Source of the DNA: Isurus oxyrinchus
Lineage: Eukaryota
Length of the DNA: 64,000 bases
Reading direction: 5' to 3'
Assembly: GCA_026770705.1 (NCBI GenBank)
Contig: JANJGN010000004.1
Location: 192,014,001 to 192,078,000 of the forward strand
How positions within the stretch are numbered: position 1 is the stretch's first letter; each line of letters opens with the position of its first letter. The translations under genes were made by a program, and so were the position numbers. Shown piece by piece: positions 1 through 64,000 of this stretch. A model generated the notes under the pieces. The model made no database searches. It was not told the origin of the DNA and saw only the letters and a list, made by a program, of their open reading frames with translations.

Positions 1-762
1 ACTGCCAGGCAATGACTATCTTCAACATGAGTGAATCTAACCAGCTGCTCTTGACATCCAATGGCATTACCACCACTGAAACCCCCACTATCAACATCCT
101 GGGGATTACCATTGACCAGAAACTGAACTGGACCAGCCATATAAATACTGTGGCTACAAGACCAGGTCAGAGGCTGGGAATTCTGCGGCGAGTAACTCAC
201 CTCCTGACTCCCCAAAGCCTGTCCACCATCTACAAAGCACAAGTCACGAGTGTGATGAACACTCTCCAGTTGCCTGGATGAGTGCAGCTCCAACACCACT
301 CAGGTAGCCCAACACTATCCAGGGCAAAACAGCCCACTTGATTGGCACCCCATCCACCACCTGCAACACCGGCTCCACCACCGATGCACAGTGGCAATAG
401 TGTGTACCATCTACAAAATGCACTGCAGTAATTCACCAAGGCTCCTTCAACAGCACCTTCCAGACCCACGATTGCTGCCACCTCGAAGGACAAGGGCAGC
501 AGATGCATGGAAACACCACCACCTGTAAGTTCCCCTCCAAGCCACACACCATCCTCACTTGGAAATATATTGGCCGTTCCTTCACTGTTGCTGAGTCAAA
601 ATACTAAAACTCCCTTTCTAACAGCACTGCAGATGCACCTACACCACATGGACTGCAGCAGTTCTAGAGGGCAGCTCACTGCCACCTTAAGGGCAATAAG
701 TGATGGGCAATACATTCTGGCCTAGCCAGCAATGCCCAAAACCCATGAAAGAATTAAAAAAA
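1..762 (+). mobile_element. 3' part of APE-RT non-LTR LINE (family A, CR1/L2-group)
   Basis: RT C-terminal peptide PTINILGITIDQKLNW..HINTVAT; 3' tail GGGCAAT..GATGGGCAATA..CTGGCC..CCCATGAA + A-run, shared with other copies in the window. Confidence 0.85.
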
Positions 763-13500: not shown

Positions 13501-16500
13501 CTGAATAGGATTGGTTTTACCTGATATTCTTCCACTGGTGGGGAGACAATGTAGCACATTTTGCAATAAATAATCGAAACGTTTATGAATTGTTTTTATC
13601 TCTTTAGGGTGTTCAAGGCTAATAGGATGCACCAGATCTTTGAAAAGGTAGGATGATTGGTTATTGATACATGCGAGGTAGCAGAAATATTCTGGTTCAG
13701 GGTGGAATTGAACATCTCTTGCTCACAAACAGAGTGCAGCTCGTTGGTGATTAACTGCTAACATGGTAATCCTTTTCAAACACTGGCTGTGGGGAAAGTG
13801 ATCTAAATAGGCTGAGAGATTAATCATTATTGAGTAAAATCTGCCAGTTGCCAGAGACTTATAAACCCCTGACTCCAGATTCACCTGCAATCTTCCTTCC
13901 ACCAAATTAACCTGCAGTTCATCCCAGTATAAAAATGAAGATCTTGCTCATGTTTACCCCTGTGGACACTTTGAGTTGCAACGAATGCTTTCTGGAGGGA
14001 AAGACTTTACTAGATTGAAATATTATCGCTTGCAGTGAATACTTGAGAATAATGTGCAAGTATTTGATTTTATAGTACTTTTACATCCTGTTATTTTCTC
14101 CCTCCCCCTTCAAAGAGCAGAATTTCCAATGGGTGAGGAGATGGTCTCCCAGTCATTCCCCGTTTCCCAAGCCTTCTGCAGCTCTGCCACCAAAGTTATG
14201 AAAGATGGCCTCAAGAAACCCTTGCAAGAATTTCACTCATACCTCCAATACCCTCCCTCCCCTATCCTGAATCTAGTGACTGAAAGATAACCAGAACTGC
14301 CTGGAATCATTTGTTACTGTGATTTTTGCTGGTTTCTGCAGCCTTCCTGGTGTTGCAGCTGCTTGACTATGTCCTGGGTTCCGTGTGCCAGTCACACTAG
14401 GTGCCAAGCGTAGACTGTGAGCGATGGGCGAGCTGTTCAACTGTGCCAAGCCTGATGGCGTCCACAATCGTGATCATTTATAGCAGGGTTCAATTGGTTG
14501 ACTGTGTTCATCACCCTCAGAAAACTGTTCTCTGTACAACACGAGCAAGTGGTTGATGTCACCAGGGATTACACTGTTAGCTTCCTCTGAATATTTTTGC
14601 TCCTTGTGTATTTTTCAGGAAGGATCCAGGTTCATCCATGACTGCCAGGACTGATCAGGCCCACCAGAAGTCTGCACCGGGTACTGACTGAACTTCAATG
14701 GCTGGATCAAAGTCTATTCAAACAGTGCAACGAGAGAGTTTAAGGAATATCGACAAATAGGAAATACCGGACAGATATTTAGGAGCAGATTGTCGCCTTC
14801 GCTGTCTGGGCGATAATCTGATGAGACAAACCGTTTGCACCAGCCTAGGAAGATTGGGTGTCGGTCACCCAAAATGACTCCCAGTAACTGGTGGTGGGGA
14901 GGGGGGGAGCAGTGTTAATTCAAGGCTCGTCACACCATCTCCTGCTCACTTCACATGACATTCTCCTACTCGAACATATACTTTCTCTGAAAACTGGGGA
15001 AGCTTCTTCCCTTCCGACACGACATGGACTGCAGAGATTCAAGAAGGCAGCTCACCACCACCTTCTCAAGGGCATCTAGGGATAGGCAATTAAATACTGG
15101 CCCAGCCAGCGAAGCCTACATCTGATGCACGAGTTAATAAAAAATCCCATCCAGCCTAATCCCGCTCTCCCTCTCACTCCACACACTGTTTACTATCCCA
15201 CACAGTCCAATACTACTGTCCTGCTCACTTCCCATACCCTACAATAGATTTTTTTTTATCTGTTTATGACATGTGGGCATCGCTGGCTAAATCAGCACTT
15301 ATTGCCCATTCCTAGACCTTTGTTCAAAGGGTATTTTTTTTAAAGAGTCAACCATGTTGCTGTGGGTTCGGAGTCACATGTAGGCCAGACCAAGTGAGGA
15401 CAGCAGACTTCCTTCCCTAAAGGAACTTAGTGAACCAGATGGGATTTTTTTGACAATTGACCATGGTTTCATGGTCACCATCTTACCTTTAATTCCAGAT
15501 TGTTTTTATTGGATTCAAATTTCACCATCTACTGCGGTGGAACTTGAACCTGGGTACCCAGGGCGTTACCCTGGGTCTTTGGAATACTAGTCCAGTGATA
15601 ATACCACTATGCCATCACCTCCCTCCAATATGCCACCCAGTCTAATCCCACTCACCCCCTCACTCCACATACCCTACAATATCTCATCCCGTCTAATCCC
15701 ACTCTGCTCCTCACCCCACACACCCTACAATATCCCACCCAGACTAACCCGACTCTCCTGCTGTCTCCACATACCCTACAATACCCCACCCAGTCTAATC
15801 TGACTCTCCTGCTCACACCATATACCCTACAATATCCATCCAATCTAATCTCACTCTTCCCCCCAACCCACATACCCTATGATATTCCACCCAGTCTAAT
15901 CCGACTCTCCCCCTCACTCCTTGTGATATAGGAAACGCAACAGCCAATTTGTGTCCAGCAAGGTCCCATAAACAGCATGCATTCAAACCAGTTAACCTGT
16001 CTCTTTAGTGATGTTGATTGAGGGATGACTGTGGACAAGAACACCAGGGGGAACTCCTCTCTTCTTTGAAATAATCACAGAATCACAGTGCAGAAGAGGC
16101 CCATTGGCCCAGCGAGTCTGTACCTACACATGAGAAACTCCTGACTTACCTACCTAACACCATTTACCAGCACTTGTCCCATAGCCTTGAATGTTATTGT
16201 ATGCCAAGTGCTCATCCAGGTACTTGTTAAAGGATGTGAGGCAACCCGTCTCCACCACCCTCCCAGGCAGCGCATTCCAGACCGTCACCACCTTCTGGAT
16301 AAAAGTTTTTCCTCACATCCCCCCTAAACCTCCTGCCCCTCACCTTGAGCTTATGCCCCCTTGTGACTGATCTTTCAACTAAGAGGAACAGCTGCTCCCT
16401 ATCCACACCCCTCATAGTCATGTAATTTTTCACATTCACCTGAGAGGGCAGGCAGGAACTGGGTTTAATGTCTCACCTGAAAGATAGCACCCCTGACAGT

Positions 16501-19500
16501 GCAGCACCCCATCAGGGCTACATTGAAGTGTCAGCTAGATTTAGTGTTGGAAGTCTCTGGAGTGGGGGGATTGAACCCACAACCTTCTCACTCAGAGGGG
16601 TCTGTGCTGCCCACTGAGCCACTGCTGATATCTAATGACAGCTATGTCAGATGTATGGCACTGTTTCATACCTGTTTGTGTTACAGAGCAAGGCGATTCC
16701 AACACCTACGCCGAGATTGAAAGGGGCAGAACAGGTACACTGCATCTTAATGGTTTACTGTTGTTATTTGGTATTCAGACTCTATCCTCCAACCAACAGA
16801 AGTTTTTGTTTTGTTTTTGTAGGTGGCAAGAGATTCACAATTAGTGCTTCAGAAGACCGTGAGTGAATGTCTCCTTTAATATTGAGAAAAAATGTAGTTT
16901 CAAATCTCTCCCACTCCCCCATATCCTTAAAAGCTGACTTGTTTGTGAGTCTGGCAACCTAGGTAAAGGTTGGTGGATGCTGCAATGGGAGATCGTTCCG
17001 CTCCCAAGATTCATGCCTGTCCCACCATCAGAAATTCATCTCAAATGAGAGCTCCCAGTTCAGCCTTGAGTGACCATGAACTCTCCCCTTAGGAGCTGCT
17101 TCATAAAGTGGATCCCAGCCAGCACCACACCCTCAGCATGGGCTTGTGAAATGAAGGCCATGACTGGCCAGCTTGATTGAATTTTTTCAGGAGGTAGCCA
17201 GGAGGGTGGATGGGGTCAGCACAGTTTGAGGTAGCCCACGTGGATCTTAGCAAGGCTTTTGACAAGGTTCCACGTGGCAAACTGGTCAGAAAATTAAAAG
17301 CTCATAGGATCTAAGGGAGGGTGGCAAATTGGATGCAAAACTGTCTTAGTGGCAGGAAGCAAAGTGTTATGGTCGATGGGTAGTTTTGGGCAACTGCAGC
17401 AAGTGTTGGTTGCTGGAGGAACTCCGGCTCAGAATTGATGAGCTGGAGTCCGAGCTCCGGACACTGCGGCACATCTGGGAGGGGACGAGTTACCTGGACG
17501 CTTTGTTTCAGGAGGCGGTTACACCTGGTAGATTAAGTACCTCAAGTTCGGTCAGTGGTCAGGGTCAGCAGGGTGTGACTGCAAGTGAGGCAGGTAGAGG
17601 GATCCTGTATTCAGGAACAGAGGAGCCTCAGCTCTTGACCGTGTCCAACAGGTACGAGGTACTTGCTCCCTGTGTGGATGAGGAAGAGGGCTGTAGGGAG
17701 GATGAGCCAGCTGACCACGGAACCATGGCACAAGAAGCCATTCACAAGGGGGGAACAAAAAGACAAGTGGTAGTTGTAGGGGATTCTATAATTAGGGGAA
17801 TAGATAGCATCCTTTGTAAGCAGGATCGAGAGTCCCGCATGGTATGTTGCCTGCCTGGTGCCAGGGTGAGGGACATCTCTGACCGGCTTGAAAGGATATT
17901 GGAGAGGGAGGGGGAGGATCCAGTTGTTGTGGTCCACATCGGGACAAATAACATAGGTAAGACTAGGAAAGAAGATCTGTTTGGGGATTATCAGGAACTA
18001 GGAACTAACTTAATGAACAGGTCCTCAAGGGTTATAATCTCCGGATTACTACCCGAGCCACGTGCAAATTGGCATAGGGACGCGAGAATAAGGGAAGTAG
18101 ACACATGGCTAAGGGAGTGGTGCGGGAAAGAGGGGTTCCATTTCGTGGGGCACTGGCATCAGTATTGGAACAGGAGGGATCTGTACCGTTGGGATGGTCT
18201 CCACCTGAACCGATCTGGGACCAATGTTCTAGCGAAAAGGGTAAATAGGGTGGTCAACAGGACTTTAAACTAGAAAGTGGGGGGGGGGAAGGGAAGGGTA
18301 AAACTCCAAAAGTATGACCAATGGGAAACAAAGCAGCAGGTTAGCATGTGGGAGGTGGATTCAACTTCAAGGAAAGTTATGAAAAAAAGGAAAAGAAAGG
18401 AGAGCCCAGGAGAGGCTATTAAAGTCTCCAGAACACAAAATAGGACAGAGTGTTTAGAAAGGGCTAGGAATCTAACTTCCAGCACATCAGATAAAGGGAT
18501 GACAATGAGAAAGGGGACAGGAAATACAGGACTGAAGGTGTTATATCTGAATGCATGCAGTATACGAAATAAGCTAAATGAGCTTGTGGCACAGATTGAA
18601 ATTGGCAGGTATGATGTGGTGGGCATCACGGAGACATGGCTGCAAGGGGATCAGGACTGGGAGCTAAATATCCAAGGATATACATCCTATCGAAAAGATA
18701 GGCAGCTTGGCAGAGGGGGTGGGGTTGCTTTGTTAGTAAGAAATGAAATTAAATCGATAGCAAGAAATTATGTAGAGTCAGATGATGCAGAATCTGTGTG
18801 GGTAGAGTTGAGGAACTGCAAAGGTAGAAAAACCATAATGGGAGTTATGTACAGGCCTCTGAACAGTAGTCAGGATGTGGGGCACTAGATACAGCAGGAG
18901 ATAGAAAAGGCGTGTAAGAAAGGCAAGGTTACAGTGATCATGGGGGGATTTCAATATGCAGGTAGACTGGGAAAATCAGGTTGGTAATGGATCCCAAGAA
19001 AAGGAATTTGTGGAATGTCTACGAGATGGCTTTTTGGAGCAGCTTGTGGTGGAGCCCACTAGGGAACAGGCAATTCTAGATTTAGTGATGTGTAATGAGG
19101 CAAATTTGATAAGGGAGTTTAAGGTGAAGGAACCCTTAGGAGGAAGTGACCGTAATATGATAGAATTTACCCTGCAATTTGAGAGGAAAAAGCTGGAATC
19201 AGATGTAACGGTATTACAGTTGAATAAAGGCAACTACAGAGGCATGAGGGAGGAGCTGGCCAGAATTGACTGGGAGATGAGCCTAGCAGGTAAGACAGTG
19301 GAACAGCAATGGCAGGAGTTTCTGGGAGTAATTTGGGAGACACAGCAAAAATTCATCCCTAGGAAGAAGAAGCATACTAAAGGGAGGACGAGGCAACCAT
19401 GGCTGACAAGGGAAGTCAGGGACAGCATAAAAGCTAAAGAGAAAGCATACAATGCGGCGAAGAGCAGTGGGAAACCAGGGGATTGGGAAACCTACAAAGA

Positions 19501-22500: not shown

Positions 22501-25500
22501 GATGTTGGGTGTGTAAATTGTGTGTAAGTTGGGATGATACCCTCTCACAGCAAGTGTTTGCCCATTAGATCTGTCTGGGGACATTCGATTAAGACCATGC
22601 CTGATTTGCACTTCAACTCCATTTTCCTTCCTTTGCTCTCTTATCCTGTTAATTAAAGGGGGGAGAGATAAACCTTGTAACGACAGGCCCATGAGTCAAA
22701 TGGTGGCAGAGGGAGACAATAATCTGGGACAAAATTAATTGGCACTTGGGAAAGTCTGGGTTAATAAATAAAAGCCAGTACAGATGTGTTAAACACAAAT
22801 TGTTTCTGAGGAACCTGATTGAGGTATTTGAAGTTAGAGAGTTGATGAGGGTCGTTGCAATAAACTTGGTGTACTGGACAGGCTTCCTCTTAGAAACAGT
22901 AAACTTTATTTACAGAGCTGCTGATGAAATGTGAACCAAGCCCACCACTAGAAAGCTCCGCCCCTAAGATTACCTGCGCTTAGGGCTGATTCATCTGTAC
23001 AGTCACATGACCCTCAAAACAGTATAAAAGGTTTTACTTACAATCAGTACATCCCTACCCCTTTAATTTTGTTTTACATCTTTTATTTAAAAGAATATCT
23101 TAAATCCATAACATGTACAAATACATCCAGTTCATGGAATTATAGATTGAGGTGGTTTTCTGATTCGGGTAGAGCGATGTAACTCTACGGCTTGAGATTC
23201 TTCCACTGGATCGACTTGACCAGGAACTGCAGCATCAGGGACATCCTTAGACAATGGCAGTTCAGAATTATTTACTTCCACAGAGACATCAGGTACGACT
23301 ATTCTTTGTCAATCTGGTGCCTCAGGGATTGAAGGTTCAACTTCATGTTCAGGTGGAGGAACTGATTGCTGGAGCGTCTCTCTACGTCTTAGATAATCCA
23401 CATGTTTCTGAACAATCCTGTTTTCCGCTTCCATTTGGTATGACAAAGGTCCTGTTTCAGAGACAACTGTACCAAGAACGCATCTCGGTCCAGTTCCAAA
23501 ATTTCGCAGAATAACTGTCACTCGCACAGTAAGTTTTCAATCTTTACTGTGAAAATCATGATTCACTCCTGACTACTTTGGTTCCCTCCAAGTCAGGGAA
23601 CAGCAGACTCAATCTCGTACGAAGGCGGTGTTTCATACTGATGTGGTTGACCCTTAAATGCCCCACGAAATAGCCTAGCCAGCCACTCAGTTGTATCAAA
23701 CAGCTACAAAGTCTCAAAAAAGGAATGAAGTCGGACAGACTGCCCGGCATCCACCTAGGCACCGGAAAGGACAATGGCAAACTCAGCGCTGTCGACCCTG
23801 CAAAGTCTTCCTTACTAACTCCCGGGGGCAAGTGCCAAAATTGGGAGAACTGTCTCACAGACTAGTCAAGCAACAGCCTGACATAGTCATCCTCACAGAA
23901 TCATACCTTACAGATAATGTCCCAGGCTCCACCATCACCATCCCTGGGTATGTCCTGTCCCACCAGCAGGATAGACTCAGCAGAGGTGGAGGCACAGTGG
24001 TATACAGTCGGGAGGGAGTTGCCCTGGAGTCCTCAACCTGGACTCTGGACTTCATGAAGTCTCATGGCATCAGGTCAAACATGGGCAAGGAAAACTCCTG
24101 CTGATTACCACATACCGCCCTCCCTCACTGATGAATCAGTGCTCCTCCATGTTGAACACCACTTGGAGGAAGCACTGAGGGTGGGAAGGGCACAGAATGT
24201 ACTCTGGGTGGGGGACTTCAATTTCCATCACCAAGAGTGGCTCAGTAGCACTACTACTGACCAAGCTGGCTGAGTGCTAAAGGACATAGCTGCTAGACTG
24301 GGTCTGTGGCAGGTGGTGAGGGAACCAACAAGAGGGAAAAACATAGTTGACCTCTTCATCACCAACCTGCCTGCTGCGAATGCATCTGTCCATGAAACAT
24401 TTGCTACAATCTTTGGCCAGAAGTGCCAAGTGGATGATCCATCTCGGCCTCCTCCGGAGGTCCCCAGCATCACAGATGCCAGTCTTCAGCCAATTCAATT
24501 CACTCCACATGATATCAAGAAATGGCTGAAGGCACTGGATACTGCAAAGGCTGTGGGCCCTGACAGTACAACAGCAATAGTACTAAATACTTGTGCTCCA
24601 GAACTTGCCAAGCCCCTAGCCAAGCTGTTCCAGTGCAGCTACAACACTGGTATCTACCTGGCTATTTGGAAAATTTCCTAGGTACGTCCTGTACACAAAA
24701 GGCAGGACAAATCCAACCCAGCCAATTACTGCCCTATCAGTCTACCCTCGATCATCAGTAAAGTAATGGAAGGGGTCATCAATAGTGCTATCAAGCGGCA
24801 CTTGCTTAACAAGAACCTGCTCACTGATGCCCAGTTAGGGTCCTACCAGGGCCACTCAGCTCCTGACCTCATTACAGCTTTGGTTCAAACATGGACAAAA
24901 GAGCTGAACTCCCAAGGTGAGGTGAGAGTGACTGCTCTTGACATCAAGGCCACATTTGACTGAGTGTGGCATCAAGGAGCCCTAGCAAACAGAAGTCAGT
25001 GGGAATCAGGGGAAAACTGTCCACTGATTGATATCATATCTAGCACAAAGGAAGATGATCGTTGGAGGTCAGTCATCTCAGCTCCAGGACATCACTTAAG
25101 GAGTTCCTCAGGGTAGTGTCCTTGGCCTAACCATCTTCAGCTGCTTCATCAGTGACCTTCCTTCCATCATAAGGTCAGAAGTGGAGATGTTCGCTGATGA
25201 TTGCACAATGTTCAGCACCATTCACGACTCCTCAGATACTGAATGCAGCAAGATCTGGACAATATCCAGGCTTGGGCTGACAAGTGGCAAGTAACATACG
25301 TGGCACACAAGTGCCAGGCAATGACCATCTCCAACAAGAGGGAATCTAACCATTTCCCCTTGACGTTCAATGGCATTACCATCACTGAATCCTCTACTAT
25401 CAACATTCTGGGGGTTACCATTAATCAGAAATTGGTGGGGTAGTAAATAGTGAGAAGGATAGACTTAGATTACAGGAGGACATGGACGGGCTGGTCAGAT

Positions 25501-28500
25501 GGGCTGATTAGTGGCAAATGGAACTTAATCCAGATGAGTGTGAGGTGATGCACTTGGGCAGGACAAACAAGGCACGGGAATACACGATGAATGTCTGGCC
25601 TGGGAAGTATTGAGCATCAGATGGATCTTGGTGTGCATGTCCACCTGTCCTTTAAGGTAATAGACAGGTAGATAAGGCGGTTAAGAAGACATATGGGATA
25701 CTTGCCTTTATTAGCTGAGGCATTGAATGTAAGAGCAGGGAGGTTATGCAGGAACTGAATAAAACGCTAGTTAGACCACAGCTAGAGTATTGCTTGCAGT
25801 TCTGGAATCTGCATTTTAGGAAGGATGTGATTGCACTGGAGAGAGTGCAGAGGAGATTTACCAGGATGTTGCCTGGGCTGGAGAGTTTCTTATGAAGAGA
25901 GATTGGATAGATTGGGGTTATTTTCACTGGCGCAGAGGAGATTGAGGGGGGACATAATTGAGGTGTATAAAATTATGAGGGGCATAGATAGGGTAGAGAG
26001 GGAGGAACTTTTCCCCTTAGTGGAGGGATCAATAACCAAGGGGCATAGATTTAAGGAAAGGGGTAGGAGGTTTAGAGGGGATTTGAGGAAGAATTTTTTC
26101 ACCCAGAGGGTGTTGGGAATCTGGAACTCACTGCCTGAAAGGGTGGTAGAGGCAGAAACCCTCATAATATTTAAGAAGTATTTGAATGTGCGCTTGCGAT
26201 GCCATGGCATACAAGGCTATGGGCCTAGTACTGGAAAATGGAATTAGAATTATTAGGTACTTGTTTGACTGGTGCAGACTCAATGGGCCAAAGGGCCTTT
26301 TTCTGTGCTTTAGACCTCTATGACTCCATAACTATGAGAAACTGAGCTGGACTAGCCATATAAATATTGTGGCTACAAGAGCAGGTCAGGAGGCTAGGAA
26401 TCCTGTGACGAGTAACTCACCTCCTGACTCCCCAAAGCCTGTCCACCATCAAGTCAGGAGTGTGATGAAATACTCCCCACTGGCCTGGATGAGTGCAGCT
26501 CCCACAACACTCAAGAAGTTTGACACCATCCAGGATAAAGCAGCCCGCCTGATTGGCACCCCATCCACAAACATTCACTCCCTCCACCACCGATGTACAG
26601 TAGCAGCAGTGTGTACCATCTACAAGATGCACTGCCGGAAGTCACAAGGTTCCTTCGACAGCACCTTCTAAACCCATGACCACTGCCATCTGAATGGACA
26701 AGGACAGCATATTGATGGGAATACCACCACCCGGAAGTTCCCATCCAAGCCACACACCATCCTGACTTGGAAATATATCACCGTTCCTTCACTTTCGTAG
26801 GGTCAAAATCTTGGAATTCCATTCCTAACAGCACTGTGGGTGTACCTACACCTCATGGACTGCAGCGGTTCAAGAAGGCAGCTCACCACCACCTTCTCAA
26901 GGGCAATGAGGGATGGGCAATAAATGCTGGCCCAGCCAGTGATACCTGTACCCCATGAATGAATAAATAAAATGGATGCAACTCTTGGTTATCCACTTGA
27001 TGACCCAAATAAGTGACTTCGGTCGCTTGGAAAGCACACTTCTCTTTTTTCAATAGTCCACCAACCTCCAAAAATCTCCTTAAAATCTCTTCTAGGTTAG
27101 CCAAGTGTTCAGCTTCCATTGATCCTGTGATCAGGACGTTGTTCTGGTACAGCACAGCTCGAGGAAGTCCTAACAGTAGGCTTTCCATGGTTTTTTGGAA
27201 AATCGCACAGGCAGAATACACACCAAAGGGTAGGTGTGTATATTGGTACAGGTCCTTGTGCGAGTTGATGGTTACATACCCTCTTGCTGTGTTCTCCAGC
27301 TCGAGCTGTTGCTATGCATGGCTCATGTCCAGTCTGGTGTAGGATTTTCCTCCAGCCAGCTTAGCGTACAGATCTTCAATCCTTGGGATTGGATATTTGA
27401 CTAATTTAACATCCTCGTTCACAGTTCATTTGTAGTCTCGGCAAATGCGAATAGTTTGATCTAGTTTCATCACGAGGACTATGGCCGTGCCCGTTCTGAA
27501 AATTGGACTGGCTGGATTATTCCTTGCTTCTCTAAGCGGCACAATTCTGCATCTACCTTCCCCTTTAGGGCGTAAGGCACAGGTCTGGCCTTAAATAACA
27601 GGGGTGTTGTCTCCGAATCTATGTATATTTTTGCTTGTAGGCCTTTTATCTTTCCCAACTCGTCTTGGAATATGCTGTCATACTTTTTTAACTGCTCAGG
27701 AATTCCTCCTCTTCTAACTTGACAAATTTCTGACCAGTTGAGTTTAATGTCTTTCAACCAAAGTAACGCAGAAGTATAGGCCCTTCACCTGTTACAACAA
27801 TCATTGCTAGCTGGGCTGTCTGTAGCCTGTAGGTTGCAGGTACAGAGGCGATGAATTTTTCCTCAGTATCTTCATCAGAGTCAAGGGACAGGACATGAGC
27901 GCTGATGACCGTGGCATATTGGTCATGGCTGAGTTGGAGATGAAGTGTCGTGAGGCAAGAGTGTCAAGAGATAGAATCATATAGCACAGAAGGAGCTCAT
28001 TCAGCCCATCGTACCCATGCTGGCTCATTGAAAGAGCTGTCCGATTAGTCCCATTCTCCTGCTATTTACCCAAAAGCCCTGAAAATATCTCTCCTTCAAG
28101 TATTTATCCAGTTCCCCTTTCCAAAGTTACGACTAACACCAAGCTTTCAGAGAGCACATTCAGGATTATAACAACTTACTGCATATGTTTTTTCCTGATG
28201 ATGCCTTTACCAATTGCCTTAAAACTGATCCCTTTTGTGAGCCAATATGAAATCAAGATGGCTGATGATAGTAAACCCTCCAATCAAGGTTTCTCTAAAC
28301 TTTCTCTGCTTGAAGAATGAAGGAGAACAATCCCAAACCCTCCATCTTCTGCATCAAAGTGAAAAACCCAACCCTGGTGCCATTCCACTAAATCTCCTCA
28401 GCACCCTCTCTAAGGCCTTGACATCCCTCCCAGAATGTGGTGTCTGGAATTGAACACAATACTCCAGCTGGGCCTAGCCAGTGTCGTATAAATGGTTAGA

Positions 28501-31500
28501 GTGACTTTTTTCTTTTGTACTCTTTGCCTCCATGGGGAAAGCTCCCCAAACGTTTTGCCGGCATGACTCCATTTTAATGCCTCAGGCATCATGTGCCCCC
28601 AGGTGAAAATATTGGGGGAGGGGGGGAACAAGAGTTGCTAAGGGAGGGGAGAGGCTTCAGTTGTTGAGTTGAGGGGGAATGGTTGAGTCTGCCCCATCCT
28701 TCACCCCAACTCCCCCTCCTTCACTCCCCATCTCCCCCTCCTTCACTCCCCATCTCCCCCTCCTTCACAACTGTCTCCCCCTCTTTTAACCCCCCATCCC
28801 CCCGTCCTTCACCCCATCCCCCCTTCAACCTTCATCTCCCCCTCCTTCACTCCCCATCTACCCCTCCTTCACACCTGTCTCCCCCTCTTTCAACCCCCCC
28901 ATCTCCCCCTCCTTCACCCCATTCCCCCCCTTCAACCCCCATCTCCCCCTCCTTCACACCTGTCTCCCCCTCTTTCAACCCCCCCATCTCCCCCTCCTTC
29001 ACCCCATTTCCCCCCCCCCTTCAACCCCCATCTCCCCCTCCTTCACTCCTGTCTCTCTCCCTTTCACTCCCATCCCAGCTCCTTCACCTCCCAATTCCCC
29101 CCTCTCCTTCAACCTCTCATCTTCCCCTCCTTTACCTCATCACCCGCTCCACTCACGATCTCCCTCGTGGGGAGAGTTAATGAAAAGGCAGGGTTTTTCC
29201 TGCCCATTCACAGGCTTTTTTTGCAGCAGCAATCGGGGCTGAGAGAGCAGTCCATTTAGCCACACCCACCAAAGTGAAGGATAAAAGGGGCCTCACCGAT
29301 GTCAGAAATCAGGCTGAGCTTTATAGCAGCCATTGCTACCTTCAAGCTCGTGGCTCCAAAATCATGTCTTGCGACTCCACTGGGGGTTGAGACCCACAGT
29401 TTTGGAAGCATAGATCCCATTTGCCCCTTTTTCCCTTGAGAACTTCAATCAAATCACCACTAACCTTCTAAATTCCAGGGAATGTGACCGTAACTGTGAT
29501 ATTCCTTCTTGTAATTTAACCCTGTGAGTCCCGATATCATCAACGTACGCTGGTCTCCCTCCCAGGACACTATATCTTTCCTAAAGTGTGGTGACCCAAA
29601 CTGCTGACAAATCCAAAAAGTCGCAGAATTTAAAATTCTCCTCCTTGTGCTCAAATCCCTACAAAACCTTGCCCCCATCTCTGTAACGTCCTGTAGCCTT
29701 ACAAACCTCCGAGAGATCTTCATCCCTCTAATTATGGCCTTTATGCGTATCCCTGATTCTCATCGCAACACCACTGATGGCCGTTGCCTCAGCTACCAAG
29801 GCTGTGAGCTCTGGCATTTCCTCTCTAAAGATCTCCTGCTCCTCTCTACCTGTCTTTCCCCGTTTTAAGTCGCTCCACGTACCATATCTGTTTGACCAAG
29901 TGTCTGATCACCTGTCCTAATACCTCCTTATGTGTCTCGGTGTTGAATTATTGTCTGATTCTTGGGCAGCACTTGTGATGCTTTACAATGATAAATGTGC
30001 GATATAAATACAAGATGCTGTAGTGCTGAAAGGTTCCTTGAATCTAGAGTAAGAAGGCTGAAGACGTAATGCAGTTTCAGAGTGGATATTGTTTGTGTTA
30101 CAGCTGAACCTGATTCCTGTACCTATGCCAGCATAGTGATTGGCAGCAGCAGAAAAGGTAACCAGCTATCAACCGACGTTCAACATATTTTACACCTCTT
30201 TCCATTTAGTGATATTTCTCAATGTTTAAAATTCATCCTCCTGACTAATGGAACATTCTCCTTCAGTTCAAGGTGGCAGAAATCTCACAGTCGCTGATTC
30301 AGAAGAGAGTGAGTCAGTTTTACCTTTCAAAATACTATTCCTAATTTTTTCTCCTTCCCTCAGCCTCTGAAGGGCATTCTCCCATGTGTGAACCCCAGTG
30401 GCAGTTGGGGCTGGGTGATCCATCTCTCTGTTATTGGGTTTTGATGGTATCATCATTTTCCCAGAACATTGACTGCCATGGATCTGTACCTCTGTCTGTC
30501 CTGTGCTGGCCTTACACAGTCCACATGGGTCAACTGCACATAGTCCACTAAATATGTCTTCTCCTATGTTTTCCATCTATCTTTCATTCTAATAATTGTC
30601 TCCGTCTACCATCTCTAATGATGTGACCAAAGTATTGTATCTTTCTTTGATGTTACGCACTAATTTCATCGTTTCTCCAGCCATTTCCAGCATTAACTCA
30701 TTAATCTTTCTATCTGTGTTGGATATGCAGAACATCATCCTTTTTTCCACATCCCTGTCTATATCCCATGCCCGCAGACGTGGACATATAGGAGGTTTCA
30801 TCACATGACCTCAAAACCTTGATTGACACCCCATCCACCACCTTAAACATTCACTCCCTCCACCACCGACATACAGTAGCAGCAGTGTGTACCATCTACA
30901 AGATGCGCTGTAGCAACTCACCAAGGCTCCTTTGACAGCACCTTCCAAATCTGCGACCTCTACCACTTAGAAGGTCAAGGGCAGCAGTTACATGGGAACA
31001 CCACCACCTGGAAGTTCCCCTCCAAGTCACTCACCATCCTGACTTGGAAATATATCGCCGTTCCTTCACTGTCGTTGGGTCAAAATCCTGGAACTCCCTC
31101 CCTAACAGCACTGTGGGTGTACCTACACCACATGGACTGCAGCGGTTCAAGAAGGCAGCTCACCACCACCTTCTCAAGGGCAATTAGGGATGGGAAATTA
31201 ATGCTGGCCCAACCAGCGAAGCCCACATCCCGTGACTGAATAAAACAAAACCCTTCCCCCTTACTCCAGCGCTCCTTCTACATCTACCACTTCTAAGTGG
31301 TAGAGGTCGCAGATTTGGAAGGTGCTGTCAAAGGAGCCTTGGTGAGTTGCTACAGCGCATCTTGTAGATGGTCAGCCTGCCTGTCCATTCTCACATGATG
31401 CAGCTTTTCTGCACCAATCAGAAGGCAATCAGACTTTCTGTTATCCCATTGGATGATACTTGACTGTCAGTCAAATTGCCCATCTCCCCCAGTGCATGCA

Positions 31501-31676
31501 TAACGAATAAACAGAGGGGCTTCAGGAAAATGAGGAACAAGCGCACAATTTTCAGGGTAAACATTCCTCTTTCCTGTGGTTACCCTGCACTGAAATTCTT
31601 GCTATAATTATAATCAGCTCTGATCCCTGTCTGTCTTGTTTCAGATGTAACCTATGCCACTGTGAACATACGTTAG
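1233..31676 (+). CDS. Single Ig V-domain inhibitory receptor (ITIM-bearing IgSF), 5'-partial; join(1233..1574,4886..4990,13608..13647,14619..14680,16687..16734,16823..16858,30104..30157,30267..30308,31645..31676)
   Basis: All nine exons have pyrimidine-tract AG acceptors, the eight internal donors are GT, phases match (1,1,2,1,1,1,1,1), no internal stops. Protein: xVGRNDSVVSGTEGNSVTLPCMFTPNNSFTLTTVTWIRKDPDQNVVTFQAQLNGSWIVVNAGNRYKLFGNPQKGDVSIMINQLNMTDNCTYLCVVEYTGPSDYQYLIQNEARVH VKPSDSTFNIYLLLIPLLILLLILFIIFIIFMKKG GCSRLIGCTRSLK RKDPGSSMTARTDQAHQKSAP EQGDSNTYAEIERGRT GGKRFTISASED PEPDSCTYASIVIGSSRK VQGGRNLTVADSEE NVTYATVNIR*. Confidence 0.8.
2465..3055 (-). mobile_element. Degraded Penelope-like element 3' remnant
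   Basis: AAACAGAAAATGCTGGGAAAACTCAGCAGGTCTGGC terminus and GIY-YIG C-terminal sequence similar to the element at 49009-51931. Confidence 0.65.
3058..3411 (-). mobile_element. CR1 LINE 3' fragment
   Basis: Reverse strand encodes FTQKVVGIWNS-like RT end; CR1-type tail. Confidence 0.7.
4235..4810 (-). mobile_element. Deu-domain SINE (SacSINE1-like), with a possible hAT-type MITE inside (~4394-4578)
   Basis: CTCAGGACATCCCAAAGTGCTT..CACAGCAGCCAATTT..GGTTTAACGTCTCA, homologous to the + copy at 41268. Confidence 0.55.
4886..4990 (+). CDS. Short stalk + transmembrane exon (phase 1-1)
   Basis: Acceptor gctgttttacAG, donor G|GTgggt; IYLLLIPLLILLLILFIIFIIFM followed by KK stop-transfer; no charged TM residue. 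Confidence 0.9.
6490..7848 (+). mobile_element. 5'-truncated CR1 LINE (3' RT region), interrupted by another CR1
   Basis: MQYNMDKCEVIHF, LYKALVRPHLEY, LRGDLIE-like motifs; (TTTCTATG) tail. Confidence 0.88.
6874..7290 (-). mobile_element. Nested antisense CR1 3' fragment
   Basis: ORF 6957-7286 RLRGDLIEVYK..FFTQ.VV..WNSLP; GAACAAAG repeat tail; splits the host CR1 at its EY|Y codons. Confidence 0.88.
8205..13030 (-). mobile_element. Degraded RTE-clade LINE, split by the LINE at 8320-11508
   Basis: LCEAETWT, NEEVLRM, GHIL..LLKEVIEG..RPRGR and LNVKK..EIRAR motifs; 3' end resumes at 8205-8319. Confidence 0.75.
8320..11508 (-). mobile_element. Near full-length family-A LINE (endonuclease + RT, frameshifted) with tRNA-like 5' head
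   Basis: APE motifs (QDRPTRGGG, GDFN), RT motifs (NYRPISLLS, LDIKAAFDRVWH, GVPQG, FTDD); poly-T at 8320; A/B-box-like head at 11420-11508. Confidence 0.9.
13608..13647 (+). CDS. Cytoplasmic exon 1 (GCSRLIGCTRSLK; phase 1-2)
   Basis: tttttatctctttAG acceptor, AAG|GTagga donor, open frame; lies in non-repeat sequence. Confidence 0.7.
14619..14680 (+). CDS. Cytoplasmic exon 2 (RKDPGSSMTARTDQAHQKSAP; phase 2-1)
   Basis: gtatttttcAG acceptor, G|GTactg donor; phase complements the previous exon. Confidence 0.7.
15145..15920. repeat. Degenerate ~49-bp minisatellite interrupted by a SINE
   Basis: Recurrent CCCTACAATATCCCACCCAGTCTAATCCCACTCTCC..CACATA units. Confidence 0.75.
15249..15623 (-). mobile_element. 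tRNA-headed SINE made of family-A LINE 5' and 3' ends
   Basis: Homologous to 11250-11508 joined to the LINE 3' tail; poly-T at left end. Confidence 0.8.
15925..16630 (-). mobile_element. Deu-domain SINE with nested CR1 fragment (~16070-16420)
   Basis: GGAAACGCAACAGCCAATTTGTG, GGTTTAATGTCTCA, TTGAACCCACAACCTTCT..CCACTGAGCCA head. Confidence 0.65.
16687..16734 (+). CDS. Cytoplasmic exon 3 with Tyr motif 1 (EQGDSNTYAEIERGRT)
   Basis: tgtttgtgttacAG acceptor, CAG|GTacac donor, 48 nt, phase 1-1. Confidence 0.85.
16823..16858 (+). CDS. Cytoplasmic exon 4, spacer (GGKRFTISASED)
   Basis: ttttgtttttgtAG acceptor, C|GTgagt donor, 36 nt, phase 1-1. Confidence 0.82.
17165..22228 (+). mobile_element. 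Older CR1 LINE RT region hosting a younger CR1
   Basis: DLSKAFDKVP at ~17245; resumes at ~21375 to a (TTTCTATG) tail. Confidence 0.75.
17386..21372 (+). mobile_element. Near full-length young CR1 LINE: ORF1 (zinc finger/coiled coil + SGNH esterase), ORF2 (APE + RT) with few stops/frameshifts
   Basis: ORF1 17386-18273 CxxC, VVGDSI, GA, HIGTNN, DGLHLN; ORF2 YLNACSI, GITETWL, GDFN, LDFQKAFDKVPH, KFADD. Confidence 0.95.
22870..23051 (-). repeat. Gypsy 3' LTR with adjacent polypurine tract
   Basis: Inverted termini TGTACTG...CAGTACA; PPT AAAGGGGTAGGGA (minus strand) at 23052-23064. Confidence 0.75.
23640..26972 (+). mobile_element. Family-A LINE, internally deleted
   Basis: QQPDIVILTESYL, WVGDFN, LDIKA, FADD; family tail at 26900-26972. 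Confidence 0.9.
25431..26336 (+). mobile_element. CR1 3' fragment nested in the family-A LINE
   Basis: RRLRGDIIEVYKIM, FFTQRV..WNSLP; host CAGAAA(C)TG site repeated on both sides; absent from the paralogous LINE near 62390. Confidence 0.88.
28690..29150. repeat. C/T-rich degenerate minisatellite
   Basis: Recurrent CCCCATCTCCCCCTCCTTCAC units. Confidence 0.85.
30104..30157 (+). CDS. Cytoplasmic exon 5 with Tyr motif 2 (PEPDSCTYASIVIGSSRK)
   Basis: tgtttgtgttacAG acceptor identical to that at 16687; AAG|GTaacc donor; 54 nt, phase 1-1. Confidence 0.85.
30267..30308 (+). CDS. Cytoplasmic exon 6, spacer (VQGGRNLTVADSEE)
   Basis: ttctccttcAG acceptor (alternative in-frame AG at 30271-72), A|GTgagt donor; homologous to 16823-16858. 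Confidence 0.8.
30822..31250 (+). mobile_element. Family-A LINE 3' fragment
   Basis: High similarity to the other family 3' ends; A-rich tail. Confidence 0.9.
31290..31372 (-). repeat. Perfect 83-bp inverted copy of 30891-30973
   Basis: Base-by-base reverse complement, including copy-private variants. Confidence 0.92.
31645..31676 (+). CDS. Terminal coding exon with canonical ITIM (NVTYATVNIR*)
   Basis: ctgtcttgtttcAG acceptor, phase 1, V-x-Y-x-x-V, TAG at 31674-76. Confidence 0.88.
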
Positions 31677-58429: not shown

Positions 58430-58597
58430 AGTGAGAAATTACAATGTTCATTTTTGCGACTGTATATAATTGGTGTACGTCTGGTGAGATTCACATCTTC
58501 TATGACTTTGAGGTGAAGGGACTTCACATAACCTTCACTCAGATTGGCTGCTGGTAACACAGGCTGCACGAAGGCTGGAAGGAGCAGGCTGGGAGGG

Positions 58598-59037
58598 TGG
58601 GGCAGACAGGAGGGGCGGGGCAGACAGGAAGGGAGGGGAAGACAGGAGGGGCGGGGCAAATGGGAGGGGTGGGGCAGGTGGGAAGGCCGGAGCAGACAGG
58701 AAGGGCGGGGCAGACGGGAAGGGCGGGGCAGACGGGAAGGGCGGGGCAGGTGGGAGGGGCGGGGCAGACGGGAAGGGCAGGGCAGGTGGGAGGGGCGGGG
58801 CAGACGGGAAGGGCGGGGCAGGTGGGAGGGGTGGGGCAGACGGGAAGGGCGGGGCAGGTGGGAGGGGCGGGGCCAACGGGTGGGGCGGGGCAGATGGGAG
58901 GGGCGGGGCAGATGGGAAGGGCGGGGCAGATGGGAGGGGCGGGGCAGGTGGGAGGGGCGGGGCAGATGGGAGGGGCGGGGCAGATGGGAGGGGCGGGGAA
59001 GGTGGGAGGGGCGGGGCAGGTGGGAGGGGCGGGGCAG
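58598..59037. repeat. ~24 x 18-bp G-rich minisatellite GGGCAG(A/G)(T/C)GGGA(G/A)GGGCG
   Basis: Direct reading; explains the overlapping repetitive ORFs. Confidence 0.95.
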
Positions 59038-59782
59038 TAGCTGGACAAAGTTGGAAGGTGTGGTGCCCAGAACTTCGATCCCTTGAGCTGGCAGTGAGGA
59101 CACCGCTTTCCGGCTCAGCCCTGTCCCGAGAGTTGCTGTACTTCACACGGATGCGGAAGTCATGAGCTGACCAGCACAAGTCGCACGTGGTCAGCGACCC
59201 TGGCCCCCCGGCAGAAAACACTCCGATTTCCACTCCCACCACTGAACTGAGGATTCCACTCTTGGAATGGAATTTCTGGACAGAGTGACGGAGGTGAAAT
59301 CATTCAACTAATTTTTGAAAAAACATTAACAGTGGAGGGAATGTTGTTAGGTTCTGGATGAACAAAGAAGTATTTAGATGAACGCTTGAAACGCCACAGC
59401 ACACAGGGCTATGGGCCAAGGGCTGGAAAACGGGATTAGAATAGATTAGTGCTTGATGACCAGCACAGACACAATGGGCCGAAGGGCCTGTTTTTGTGCT
59501 GTATAACTCCATCAGTCTATGACTCTAATTTGGGTGGTTCAATGGATTTTCTGATCTGTTAGTATCTGCGATCAAGGAATTCAAAATGAGGGATTGCGGG
59601 GGGGCGGGGTGGTGGTTACATTTTGAGCAGGGTGAATCCTGTAGGAGAGAATAGACCTGTGAGAAATATGAGTAGAGTTTTTCAGTATTTATTGTACTGT
59701 GAAGTTGAAAAATAAATAACAAGCTGAATCTAAAAATTCTGCACACTGACCTGACCCATTCTGATATTTGTTCTTTCCTCAG

Positions 59783-60063
59783 CTGCTGGTAGAAATGACT
59801 CAGTGGTGAGCGGGACAGAGGGAGATTCGGTTACATTGCCCTGTATGTTCACACCCAATAACTCTTTCACCCTGACCACTGTTACATGGATAAGGAAGGA
59901 GCCCTACCAACGTGTAGTCACATTCAGAGCCCAATCAAAGGGATCACGGAATACTGTAAATGGTAGAAATGGGAATGACCTTGTCGGGAACCCAGAGGAG
60001 GGAATTGCCTCAACCAGGATAAACCAGCTGAGGGTGAAGGCTGATCACACTTCCCTGTGTCTG
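59783..60063 (+). pseudogene. Paralogous Ig V exon (copy B), truncated just after the second Cys
   Basis: Colinear with 1233-1513 (offset 58550); D-x-x-x-Y-x-C degraded to ADHTSLC; runs into antisense LINE at 60064; no donor or TM exon found in the window. Confidence 0.88.
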
Positions 60064-60379
60064 CTGACTTGTGCCTTGTAGATGGTGGACAGGCTTTGGG
60101 AAGTCAGGAGATGAATTACTCACTGCAGAATCCCCGGCCTCTGACCTGCTCTTGTAGCCACAGCATTTATAGGGCTAGTCGAGTTCAGTTCCTGGTCAAT
60201 GGTAACCCCCAAGATGTTGATAGTGGGAGAATCAGTGATGGTAATGCCATCGAATATCAGGAGGAGATGGGCAGAATTTCTCTTGTTGGAGATGGTCATT
60301 GCCTGGCGCTTATGTGGCGCAAATGTTACACTTGGAAGTCCAAGCCTGAATGTTATCCAGATCTTGCTGCATTTGGACA
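60064..60379 (-). mobile_element. Family-A LINE fragment, antisense
   Basis: KRQAMTISNKR..PTINILGVTIDQ. Confidence 0.85.
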
Positions 60380-60383
60380 GGGT

Positions 60384-63032
60384 GGAGGAGGCTCCACAAA
60401 TACCCATATCCTCAATGATGGAGGAGCCCAACAGGTTAGTGCAAAAGACAAGGTTGAAGCCAGGAGTGCCAAACAGATGGTCCATCCCAACCTCCTCCGG
60501 AGGTCCCCAGCATCACAGATGCCAGTCTTCAGCCAATTCAATTCACTCCATGTGATATCAAGAAGTGGTGGAAGGCACTGGATACTGCAAAGTACCTGCA
60601 TGAGCCCTGACAATATTCCGGCAATAGTACTGAAGACTTGTGCTCCAGAACTGATCGCGCGCCTGGCCAAGCTATTCCAGTACAGCTACAACACCGGCAT
60701 CTACCCAGCTATGTGGAAAATTTCCCAGGAGTGTCCTGTACAGAAAAGCAGGACAAATCCAATCAGGCCAATTCATCGTCGGCTGCCCCTCGATTCAGGG
60801 ATGACATCTACTCAGGGTCGTGAGTTTCTGCCATGGGTCATCATGTGACTGAGCAGGTCGATTCTCAGCCCTCAGATCGTTCGGCACACGGGGCAGGACG
60901 TTCCACGAGGTGGTGGGACCCGGAGTGCAGGGTTTACTTCCTTTTCTTTCCTCATCATTAAGACGTTGCTTCAAAGCCTGATGCAGCTCGATGGACCAGT
61001 TGCCGCCACTTTGAACGCTTGATCGCGAGCTCCTCCCAGTCATTAACGTTAATGCTGCCGCGCTTCAAGGAGGGCTTCAGACTGTCTTTGAAGTGTTTCT
61101 TGTCCTCCCCAGAATGCTGGCCATTCGAGAGTCGAGAAAAGAGGACCTGGCCGGGGAGACAGTTTTTGGCCATCTGCACAGTGTCCAAACCATGGAAGTT
61201 AATTTTGCAGGAGTTTTGCCTGAATGCTGGTGGAGCTGGCTTCACGAGCGACACTAGCATTTGTTCCCATTGAATCTGGAGCATGAGGTGGAGACATTGA
61301 CAGTAACACATAGAGCGCTAGAGAAATTCCATTAACAAACAGTCCAGGTCTCACTGCAGTATAGACATGTGATGAAGACAGCTGCTCTGTACACTAGGAC
61401 CTTTACTGATTTGTAGAGATCTTTATTGTCAAACACTGGCTGCCATTGTTTGTAGAAGGCTGAGCTGGTGCAGCTGATCTGGTGTTGGATCTCCTCGTCA
61501 ATGATGGCCTTTTGAGAGAGGTTGTTGCCAAGGTGCAGGAAGTACTTGACACATTCCAGGATCTCTCCTTCAACATATAAGGGAGATGGAACATATAGCT
61601 GAGCCGGTGTGGGTTGATGATGAGTTTTGTTTTGTCAATATTCAAGTACAGGCCAATTGTCACGTATGCAGAATTTAAGAGATCAAGAATAGCTTGCAAA
61701 CCTGGTGCAGAGTGGGAAACAACACTGTAGTTATTTGCAAATTGTACATCATCTACATCTGTGCATTGATGCTCAGTTTGGGTTCTGCCAGGGCACTCAG
61801 CTCCTGACCTCATTACAGCCTGGGTTCAAACATGGACAAAAGAGCTGAACTCCCGAGGTGAGGTGAGAGTGACTGCCCTTGACATCAAGGCAGCATTTAA
61901 CAGAGTGTGGCATCAAGGAGCCCTAGCAAAACTGGAGTCAATGGGAATCAGGGAAAACGCTCTGCTGGTTGAAGACATACTTACCACAAAGGAAGATGGT
62001 TGTGGTTGTTGGAAATTGGTGTTCTCAGCTCCAGGACATCACTGCAGGAGTTCCTCAGGATAGTGTCCTCCCCCAACTATGTTCAGCTGCTTCATCAATG
62101 ACCTTCTTTCCATAATAAGGTCTAAATGGGGATGTTTGCTGATGATTGCACAAGTTTCAGCAGAATTCACAACTCCTCAGATACTGAAGCAGTCCATGTC
62201 CAAATGCAGCAAGACCTGGCCAATATCCAGGCTTGGGCTGACAAGTGGCAAGTAACATTCGCGCCACACAAGTGCTGGACAATGACCATCTCCAACAAGA
62301 GAGAATCCAACCATCATCCCTTGATGTTCAATGGCTTTACCATCACTGAATCCCCCACTATCAACATCCTGGGCATTACCATTGACCAGAAACTGAACTG
62401 AACTAGCCATATAAATACTGTGGCTACAAGAGCAGGTCAGAGGCTAGTAATCATGTGATGAGTAACCCACCTCCTGACTTCCCAAAGCCTGTCCATCATC
62501 TTCAAGACACAAGTCAGGAGCGTGATGGAATAATCTCCACTTGCCTGGATGAGTGCAGCTCCCACAAAACTCAAGAAGCTTGACACTGTCCAGGACAAAG
62601 CAGTCTGCTTGATTGGCACCCCATCCACAAACATTCACTCCTTCCACCACCAAAGCATAGTAGCAGCAGTGTGTACTATCTACAAGATGCACTGCAGGAA
62701 CTCACCAAGGCTCCTTCAACAGCACCTTCCAAACCCACAACCACTACCATCTGGAAGGACAAGGACAGCAGAAAGATGGGAACACCACCACCTGGAAGTT
62801 CCCCTCCAAGTCACTCACCATCCTGACTTGGAAGTATATCACCGTTCCTTCACTGTCACTGGGTCAAAATCCTGGAACTCCCTCCCTAACAGCACTGTCG
62901 GTGTACCTACACCACATGGACTGCAGCGGTTCAAGAAGGCAGCTCACCACCATCTTCTCAAGGGCAACAAGGGATGGGCAATAAATGCTGGCCCAGCCAG
63001 TGATACCGGTACCCCATGAATGAATAAATAAA
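60384..63032 (+). mobile_element. Family-A LINE, paralog of the 23640-26972 insertion
   Basis: Same 3' junction into Gypsy; shared private variants GAAAATTTCC and GATACC.GTACCCC. Confidence 0.88.
60773..61768 (-). mobile_element. RTE-clade LINE 3' fragment nested in the family-A LINE
   Basis: QFANN, GLYLNIDKTK, LPGQVLFSRL..G..K.FKDSLK, WEELA..RSKWR. Confidence 0.82.
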
Positions 63033-63285
63033 ATGGATGCAATTATCCACTTGATGACCCAAATAAGTGACTTCAGTCGCTTGGAAAGCACACTCCACCT
63101 TTTTCAATAGGCCAACAACCTCCAAAAATCTCCTTAAAATCTCTTCTAGGTTAGCCAAATGTTCAGCTTCCATTGATCCTGTGACCAGGACGTTGTTCTG
63201 GTACAGCACAGCTCGAGGAAGTCCTTGCAGGACGCTTTCCATGGTTCTTTGGAAAATCGCACAGGCAGAATACACACCAAAGGGT
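63033..63285 (-). mobile_element. Gypsy RT fragment, paralog of 26973-27230
   Basis: PFGVYSACAIFQRTMES..AEHLANLEEILRRF..YLGHQVDN. Confidence 0.88.
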
Positions 63286-63714
63286 GAAATAATTTTCAAA
63301 AACTTGCTGTGTAAAAATTGTATTTTTTGGGTGTTTGCTCTGATCATCTTAAATCTTTGCTCTCTGGTTACTGACCCCACTGTTGCTGGGAACAATTTTT
63401 TATTTACTCTATTAAAACCCCTCATGATTTTAAACACTTTGACCAAATCTCCTTTTGATCTTCTTTGTTCCAAGGAGGACTGTCCCACCATGAATATGTT
63501 GTCATTAATCCCTGATTTAAGTATTTAAGTAATTCTTCTCTGTAGCCTCTTAAGGCCTTGCTTTCTTAAAGTTTTGTGTCTAGAATTAGCTATAAAACTC
63601 TAGCTGGGGCCTAAAAGAGTGTTTTATAAGGGCTTAGCATAACTTCCTTCCTTTTGTCATCTAAGCCTCTATTAATAATGCCGAGGATTCTGTACGCATT
63701 CTATTAATAAATCT

Positions 63715-64000
63715 GGGATTTTTAAAAATTCATTCACAAGATGTGGGATTCGCTGGCTGGGCCAGCATTTATTGCCCATCCCTAGCTGCCCCTTGAGAAG
63801 GTGGTGGTGAGCTGTCTTCTTGAACTGTTGCAGTCCATGTGGTGTAGGTATATCCACAGTGCTGTTAGGAAGGGAGTTCCAGGATTTTGACCCAGCGACA
63901 GTGAAGGAATGGCGATATATTTCCAAGTCAGGATGGTGAGTGACTTGGAGGGGAACTTCCAGGCGGTGGTGTTCCCATGTATCTGCTGCCCTTGTCCTTC
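63715..64000 (-). mobile_element. Family-A LINE 3' end (runs off the window)
   Basis: Family tail sequence. Confidence 0.88.

Follow-up and report, generated by a model that had tools for sequence, protein, structure and literature searches.

Among primate immune receptors, SIGLEC11 and SIGLEC16(P) are neighbouring V-set genes with a sharply bounded tract of 97–99% identity in common; the trees of tract and flank disagree, conversion has been repeated in separate lineages and a pseudogene allele is involved, as set out in the accessible part of PMC5701461. SIGLEC5 and SIGLEC14, an inhibitory and an activating gene, are kept alike by partial conversion and occur with fusion and presence/absence alleles, according to the accessible portions of PMC4042635 and PMC6288428. 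Multigene activating and inhibitory Ig-domain receptors are also described from cartilaginous fish, namely the MDIRs of the clearnose skate, which the excerpted text of PMC3031540 calls CD300/TREM/pIgR-like. The whale-shark genome paper mentions Siglecs once in the text covered here, without the cluster reported below; its supplements may list such genes (PMC8455134). Our literature search, with subscription papers outside its scope, found no paper combining shark, gene conversion, pseudogene and Siglec and, with supplements outside its scope as well, no description of the shark receptor family or cluster.

We analysed a 64,000-nt stretch of the Isurus oxyrinchus genome (hereafter the window), which holds the second V exon (V2) of an intact receptor gene, gene A, and a truncated relative, pseudo-exon B. 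The two copies are ~97% identical over a 5' part and ~72% identical over the 3' part that follows. Our preferred reading, to which we assign a probability of about two in three, is that ectopic gene conversion recently, and probably repeatedly, replaced the first 250 bases of B with sequence from an intact A-type gene in the cluster, and that the 3' half of B belongs to an older paralog lineage. An island of identity, the truncation of B, disagreeing partition trees and the same mosaic in a second species were all observed. The process itself is familiar from SIGLEC11/16 and SIGLEC5/14, and the shark pair, judged from its sequence, is probably a new instance of it. It has the features listed above in common with SIGLEC11/16, but the primate tract extends over ~2 kb of the sialic-acid-binding domain with a flank of 88–93% identity, whereas the shark tract is 250 nt long, ends inside the second V exon and has a flank of 72%, and here the pseudogene is the likely recipient (accessible part of PMC5701461).

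A two-V-domain receptor family of sharks

Gene A is represented in the window by the following exons.

1233–1574, + strand: V2 exon of gene A, V-set, phase 1 to phase 1 (Pfam V-set E=1.6e-17; AG/GT ends; 82% to P0005, 77% to P0006)
1351–1513, + strand: C'–F part of A, changed along the lineage of functional lamniform copies (45 differences from B; polarisation; tree)
4886–4990, + strand: transmembrane exon of gene A, helix without a charged residue (profile match E=4.6e-14; splice sites and frame)
13608–13647, 14619–14680, 16687–16734, 16823–16858, 30104–30157, 30267–30308 and 31645–31676, + strand: seven tail exons of gene A, with the stop in the last (tblastn; open frame and AG/GT at each junction)

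The gene is unbroken from V2 to its stop (window 1233–31676, + strand), its own V1 falling outside the window, and its tail carries three tyrosine motifs, the last of which is a canonical ITIM. The closest relatives of A are two-V-domain shark proteins (white shark P0005, 82%; basking shark P0006, 77%; carpet sharks, ~60%), and the best 120 of 134 matches include proteins of other sharks and of rays as well as, at weaker similarity, bony-fish proteins that NCBI names Siglec-15-like. The receptor in which copy A forms the second V domain is intact, of ITIM type and a member of this shark Siglec-15-like family. Both inhibitory and activating types occur in it, 22 of the 41 proteins with a transmembrane stretch having an ITIM and 9 a transmembrane Lys. 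The white-shark model P0005 is without the transmembrane exon that gene A has at 4886–4990. In A there is also an extra cysteine, C88 (1496–1498), at a position where 56 of 65 family domains have His, and this residue is a possible unpaired thiol.

Siglec-15 (PDB 7ZOZ) was the only PDB match of P0005 at E<=1e-8 and, of the matches listed for the predicted structure of A's V2 (pLDDT 88; strand C, residues 29–38), it had the highest query TM-score (0.80). Siglecs consist of a V-set domain followed by C2-set domains, and the essential Siglec Arg lies on strand F of the V-set domain, a position that we aligned to 7ZOZ. A Siglec-like Arg follows the F-strand Cys in 38 of 46 V1 domains of the relatives. 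Unlike Siglec-15 (V + C2), however, the shark family has two V-set domains (Pfam and model), gene A carries an ITIM in its tail and lacks a transmembrane Lys, and a multigene cluster takes the place of one conserved gene; since the F-strand Arg is present in 0 of 72 shark-family V2 domains and the second domain is V-set, V2 was not filed as a Siglec domain. Compared by description, A's family, like the MDIRs, includes several genes of activating and inhibitory type and distantly resembles pIgR (accessible part of PMC3031540), and no MDIR-named protein occurs among the 120 listed of the 134 family matches.

Lys-type members have V2 domains that are nearest to a non-Lys member of the same genus in 7 of 9 cases in sharks and in 0 of 5 in rays. 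The Lys-transmembrane and ITIM-type proteins of Heterodontus (P0025, P0026, P0028, P0042, P0043) have V2 domains 98–99% identical over 96 residues, which suggests the same homogenisation outside the mackerel sharks. Besides A there is a second gene, A2, which lies outside the window; it has nearly the whole V2 exon as in A, with another exon end and another next exon, and is the type found in sequencing run X9, from which a 1546-nt contig departs from the window sequence at the exon start. The letters seen of its next exon, seven in all, fit the start of Lys-type exons better, and A2 may be the activating partner of A. Set beside SIGLEC5/14 (accessible parts of PMC4042635 and PMC6288428), the shark pairing is a putative one, drawn from those seven letters and known at the level of sequence. 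Two matches with 3 mismatches to the exon end of A2 occur in the window, at 10838 and 24064; they coincide with an identical 20-nt stretch that is present twice in opposite orientation (10838–10857, − strand, and 24064–24083, + strand).

The identity island between gene A and pseudo-exon B

The second copy and the tract itself comprise the following features.

1104–1350, + strand: homogenised tract, gene A side; last 129 nt of the intron and V2 strands A'–C including the BC loop, strands per structure model (7 differences in 247 nt from B)
59271–59653, + strand: older intron homology of B to 872–1103 (85% and 77% identity, 8 gap openings; a high-copy repeat, seen from depth, breaks it up at ~59365–59524)
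59654–59900, + strand: homogenised tract, pseudo-exon B side, the likely recipient (letter comparison with A at offset 58550)
59783–60063, + strand: orphan pseudo-exon B, V2 strands A'–F without a G strand or splice donor (alignment, exon and frame checks)
59901–60063, + strand: old paralog-type C'–F half of B, decayed at the near-invariant W55, R63, Y64, D86 and Y90 (B nearer than A to 58 of 65 family domains; column counts)
60064–60382, − strand: LINE fragment joined to B (82–86% to other copies in the window; loose ends at 60064)

Homology of B to the family stops at 60063, within strand F, where an antisense LINE follows and supplies a stop codon at 60079–81. The LINE is entered at an internal point, ~516 nt from the element's 3' end, and the junction would therefore be a deletion joint rather than a fresh insertion. 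Residues kept family-wide are lost in B (R63, present in 62 of 65 domains; Y64, in 64; D86, in 60; Y90, in 63), and neither a transmembrane nor a G-strand nor a V1 remnant belonging to B was found in the window; no V1 exon lies upstream of B anywhere in it, the 28 kb between the end of gene A and B included. Being truncated by LINE and stop, with a broken frame, framework residues gone and partner exons absent, B is a pseudo-exon, a fragment of a pseudogene. A search with B as query returned only P0081, and a cluster look-up gave only single members. A weak leader-like match at 40607 was discarded for want of an in-frame start codon or splice donor, and V94L was struck from the list of decayed residues as its position is LINE sequence. 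Many copies of one LINE family, 78–92% identical and in both orientations, lie in the window (3–762, 8323–10054, 24416–27231 and 60064–64000), and are possible substrates for deletions in the cluster.

The mosaic between the two copies had been noticed by hand count in the first-pass annotation of the window, whose figures we recovered: at a constant offset of 58550, A and B differ at 7 of 246 nt in the 5' part (1104–1349 against 59654–59899) and at 45 of 164 nt in the 3' part (1350–1513 against 59900–60063), with no indels in either part and no internal stop in the latter. Five of the seven 5' differences fall in 130 nt that are almost wholly intronic, and two in the exon beyond. A breakpoint near 1350/59900, suggested at that stage, is placed at 1351/59901 by a maximum chi-square scan, whose score was matched by 0 of 20,000 permutations, with exon sites alone as well. 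Intron farther upstream, said to be more diverged, indeed is: above 1104 it remains alignable but is identical at only 87 of 102 (85%) and 72 of 93 (77%) positions, with 8 gap openings, and it follows that the island is bounded on both sides. The tract (7/247) thus stands apart from both its upstream (36/195, Fisher P=3e-8) and its downstream flank (45/163, P=1e-13), and its 27.7 synonymous sites carry 0 synonymous differences, against a dS of 0.29 beyond it. The identity boundary between A and B is real. A G-rich degenerate tandem repeat at 58590–59040, ~600 nt 5' of B's tract, could form G-quadruplexes and might favour recombination.

Could such a pattern arise with no exchange at all, if purifying selection had conserved the 5' part and a ligand or pathogen had driven diversification of the 3' part? 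The residue is altered in 29 of the 32 changed codons, as such a history would lead one to expect, but the conserved part includes intron, 96% identical in the tract beside 77–85% upstream, together with the family's most variable loop, B is truncated, and the codon count is neutral-like (below). We regard this explanation as scarcely credible.

Probable exchange between loci, seen in more than one species

Of the 67 aligned domains, 23 entered the partition trees, of 38 and 55 columns, the other 44 being left aside partly as redundant. With the 5' partition, A, B, P0005 and P0006 form one clade (99/96). With the 3' partition, A, P0005 and P0006 stand together (98/93) and a sister relationship of A and B is rejected (p-AU 0.002); B as an early member of a lamniform four-member clade is compatible (p-AU 0.27), so that B may also have arisen within that clade. 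Lamniform branches are long in the 3' tree. In this part B is the nearer copy for 58 of 65 family domains, A for 5, with 2 tied, and at 16 of the 45 differing sites (hand count) a functional-type contig of another species has B's base. Three sources contribute to the 3' contrast between A and B: long-standing divergence of paralogs, changes along the functional lineage and the decay of B.

A conversion tract is also expected to carry species-specific states common to paralogs. Phe at residue 28 is common to A and B where P0005, P0006 and P0081 have Leu. Further evidence is provided by run X11, which comes from another species, its A-type contig showing 12 residue changes also found in P0005. 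A 248-nt contig from this run (depth 3.5) covers 59843–60090 with 16 differences and no gap; it spans the boundary, with 58 nt to the left and 190 nt to the right, and enters the LINE by 27 nt, which is below the 31-letter rule for calling the B–LINE junction. A 186-nt contig, of depth 9.6 (3.5 + 6.5), ends in 30 nt that start both this B-type contig and the A-type contig (depth 6.5); against the window it shows 5 differences from A and 7 from B. By our reading of the coordinates, two loci have one tract in common in the X11 species, and at least one X11-specific state lies within these 30 nt, at a site where A and B of the window are the same. Without exchange, 0 differences would have a probability of 0.0025 over 186 nt and of 0.38 over 30 nt; since the contigs of this run drop rare variants, the identity may be less than complete over the 186 nt. 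Because F28, or the X11 tract states, are species-specific yet common to paralogs, exchange after the species split is needed, although these states are few in number and seen at low depth. Taken with a two-sided island that includes non-coding sites and with the disagreement of tract and flank trees, they support the earlier inference of gene conversion.

Run X3 (sample S1) is near-identical to the window in A's flanks (0/72 and 0/70 differences). Its contig over 1207–1560 (depth 22.6) continues into two flanks, the downstream flank of A and another, and two loci therefore have the whole of V2 in common. Window A and this contig differ at four sites (1233, 1236, 1274 and 1433), all non-synonymous, one of them inferred near the contig end, and at none in 142 nt of flank. 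A and A2 are alike over almost all of V2, and the probable donor is A2 or an allele of that type. A 5' exon part like that of B is found in the expressed X9 copy, with which B agrees at three exon sites where window A differs; no B-type piece is among those listed for X9, nor is any RNA sample among those listed as containing B, blanks that are uninformative on the expression of B.

S1 shows no fork at 1350, and its B-type upstream intron seems to continue as an A-like 3' half; the sample contains 28 of 53 B words (0.53), a fraction that fits the 0.52–0.59 expected without B's 3' half rather than 0.68–0.80 (P<=0.02 if present). In run X2 there is no depth over 59723–60034 in the half of the run that was covered. 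In raw reads of X21, another animal (~4% of the run), 1 of 3 reads over 59912–13 is without alternative letters; the start of this one read, judged from depth bins, would lie 36 nt or more to the left of the boundary, and the read would thus carry B letters across it. The 3' half of B may be a presence/absence variant, and copy number seems variable in the cluster. The absence of a B-type fork from S1, which matches the window so closely in A's flanks, is what a collapsed or chimeric assembly would predict. We consider an artefact very improbable, however, since the contig from another species bridges the boundary with the same mosaic and the two tracts, differing at 7 sites, are not one collapsed sequence; the X21 read also speaks against it.

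The main rival, which we judge unlikely, is a fusion by unequal crossover or deletion, which would have linked the 5' half of the functional sister A2, up to the end of strand C, with the 3' half of a pseudogene of old standing, much as in the SIGLEC14/5 fusion allele. It would account for the three sites at which B agrees with the X9 copy, for the passage in S1 from B-type intron into A-like V2 with no fork, for the seeming lack of B's 3' half in that sample and for the variable copy number. A fusion should have carried the sister's V1 exon upstream of B, however, where none was found in the window, and this absence leads us to favour conversion over crossover. The same junction also recurs in a second species with tract states of its own, so that later exchange would be needed even after a fusion. 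Direction and non-reciprocity of the conversion are presumed.

Under gene conversion, the history of the locus would run as follows. An old duplication would have produced the ancestor of B, whose C'–F half diverged from the A lineage, partly while both copies coded, as the 45 changes without an indel indicate. The A lineage would then have changed many C'–F residues, a functional copy of another species keeping B's base at 16 of 45 sites. A deletion presumably joined B's F strand to the interior of a LINE, whereupon B decayed and would itself encode nothing. Recombination and conversion depend on sequence identity. Intact copies of the cluster would go on exchanging sequence across the V2 exon, and the exchanges that reach B, by way of the near-identical intron end and strands A'–C, would be halted at ~59900 by the drop in identity to 72% and by the end of homology 163 nt farther on; stopping always at this point, they would keep the edge sharp and reuse it. 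At least one such exchange would postdate the split from the second species. Selection against homogenising C'–F while B's ancestor worked may have set the edge in the first place, which the lack of indels fits.

Codon counts, selection and the wider cluster

The first-pass annotation read the 3' part as almost wholly non-synonymous and as a possible sign of strong diversifying selection on a C-to-F region. The diverged region is C'–F, strand C ending at residue 38 in the model. The count itself stands: 32 codons are changed in 1349–1513, of which 3 are synonymous-only (the codon at 1514 is excluded, being LINE sequence in B). As a sign of selection it does not, since 45 changes placed neutrally in 55 codons leave 5.1–6.1 synonymous-only codons on average and 3 or fewer in 12–23% of 20,000 runs. 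The low number misleads because synonymous changes hide in twice-hit codons at 28% divergence, and 'almost all non-synonymous' is a counting effect within neutral expectation. By the Nei–Gojobori method there are 36 non-synonymous and 9 synonymous differences between A and B (dN 0.355, dS 0.286, dN/dS ~1.2; Fisher P=0.68), and transition-weighted omega is 1.1–1.6 (P 0.12–0.45). In 62 non-lamniform domains the C'–F part is conserved (0.77 bits), the most variable segments being the BC loop, inside the homogenised tract (2.18 bits), and the FG loop (1.95 bits). With dN/dS near 1, a neutral codon count, conservation of C'–F outside the lamniforms and a B that is a truncated pseudo-exon, the A–B pair gives no support to diversifying selection. 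A hypermutation signature is likewise not evident between A and B, the 12 kinds of change being spread, with 22 towards G/C in B against 11.

Selection may have played a subtler role, along the lines of the 'peak of divergence' model described in PMC3924837: it would have kept the C'–F halves apart while conversion levelled the rest, B's ancestor then still working, and functional lamniform copies would since have changed C'–F under positive selection. This is compatible with conversion and a possible contributing cause, although we would wager against it. The 3' part has 0 indels per 45 changes where the upstream part has 8 gap openings per 36 (P<=0.008 at that rate; P 0.01–0.11 at 1 indel per 10 changes), and the long lamniform branches of the 3' tree point the same way. 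Among A and the functional-type contigs of X11 and X18 over 1349–1560, 28 non-synonymous and 3 synonymous differences are listed (hand-classified; omega 2.7–3.9, P 0.008–0.06), but P becomes 0.15–0.47 should every one of the differences near contig ends that are missing from the list, 4 at most, be synonymous. The A-side sites alone give 14:2 (P 0.11–0.27), omega between A and B is not significant, and B now lies beyond the reach of selection. The same paper cautions that gene conversion can look like positive selection (PMC3924837). An excess of non-synonymous change exists, if at all, only among functional copies of the three species, where it is borderline and a lead rather than a result.

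The mosaic is an ordinary outcome of exchange in a tandem immune-gene cluster, and a warning that synonymous-only codon counts, at 28% divergence and with a pseudogene as one partner, imitate selection. It is of use chiefly in drawing attention to a family of shark receptors that includes both ITIM and Lys-transmembrane members, has V2 exons that are nearly identical and seems to vary in copy number. More broadly, and as a tentative proposal that we think rather unlikely as a whole, sharks may possess an undescribed cluster of paired receptors based on a Siglec-15-like V domain present twice. Ongoing conversion would keep its inhibitory and activating genes alike, C'–F of V2 would have evolved adaptively in mackerel sharks, and the pseudo-exon would receive and occasionally donate sequence (W55R), the whole being an independent parallel to primate SIGLEC5/14 and SIGLEC11/16. 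If confirmed, this would be a case of paired-receptor homogenisation in cartilaginous fish, and a small testable one of whether an old edge of heterology fixes the ends of conversion tracts.

The cluster has at least three V2 copies per species. In X11, an 872-nt contig over 59751–60060 has 56 differences in 310 nt and is a further paralog, and in X18 several contigs over 1206–1360 represent several tract variants. W55R (1397/59947) is found in B, in white-shark P0005 and in the A-type contig of X11, and neither in window A nor in any of the 62 non-lamniform domains, the X21 reads having the Trp letter; it may be a micro-conversion from the pseudogene or a CpG-related parallel change.
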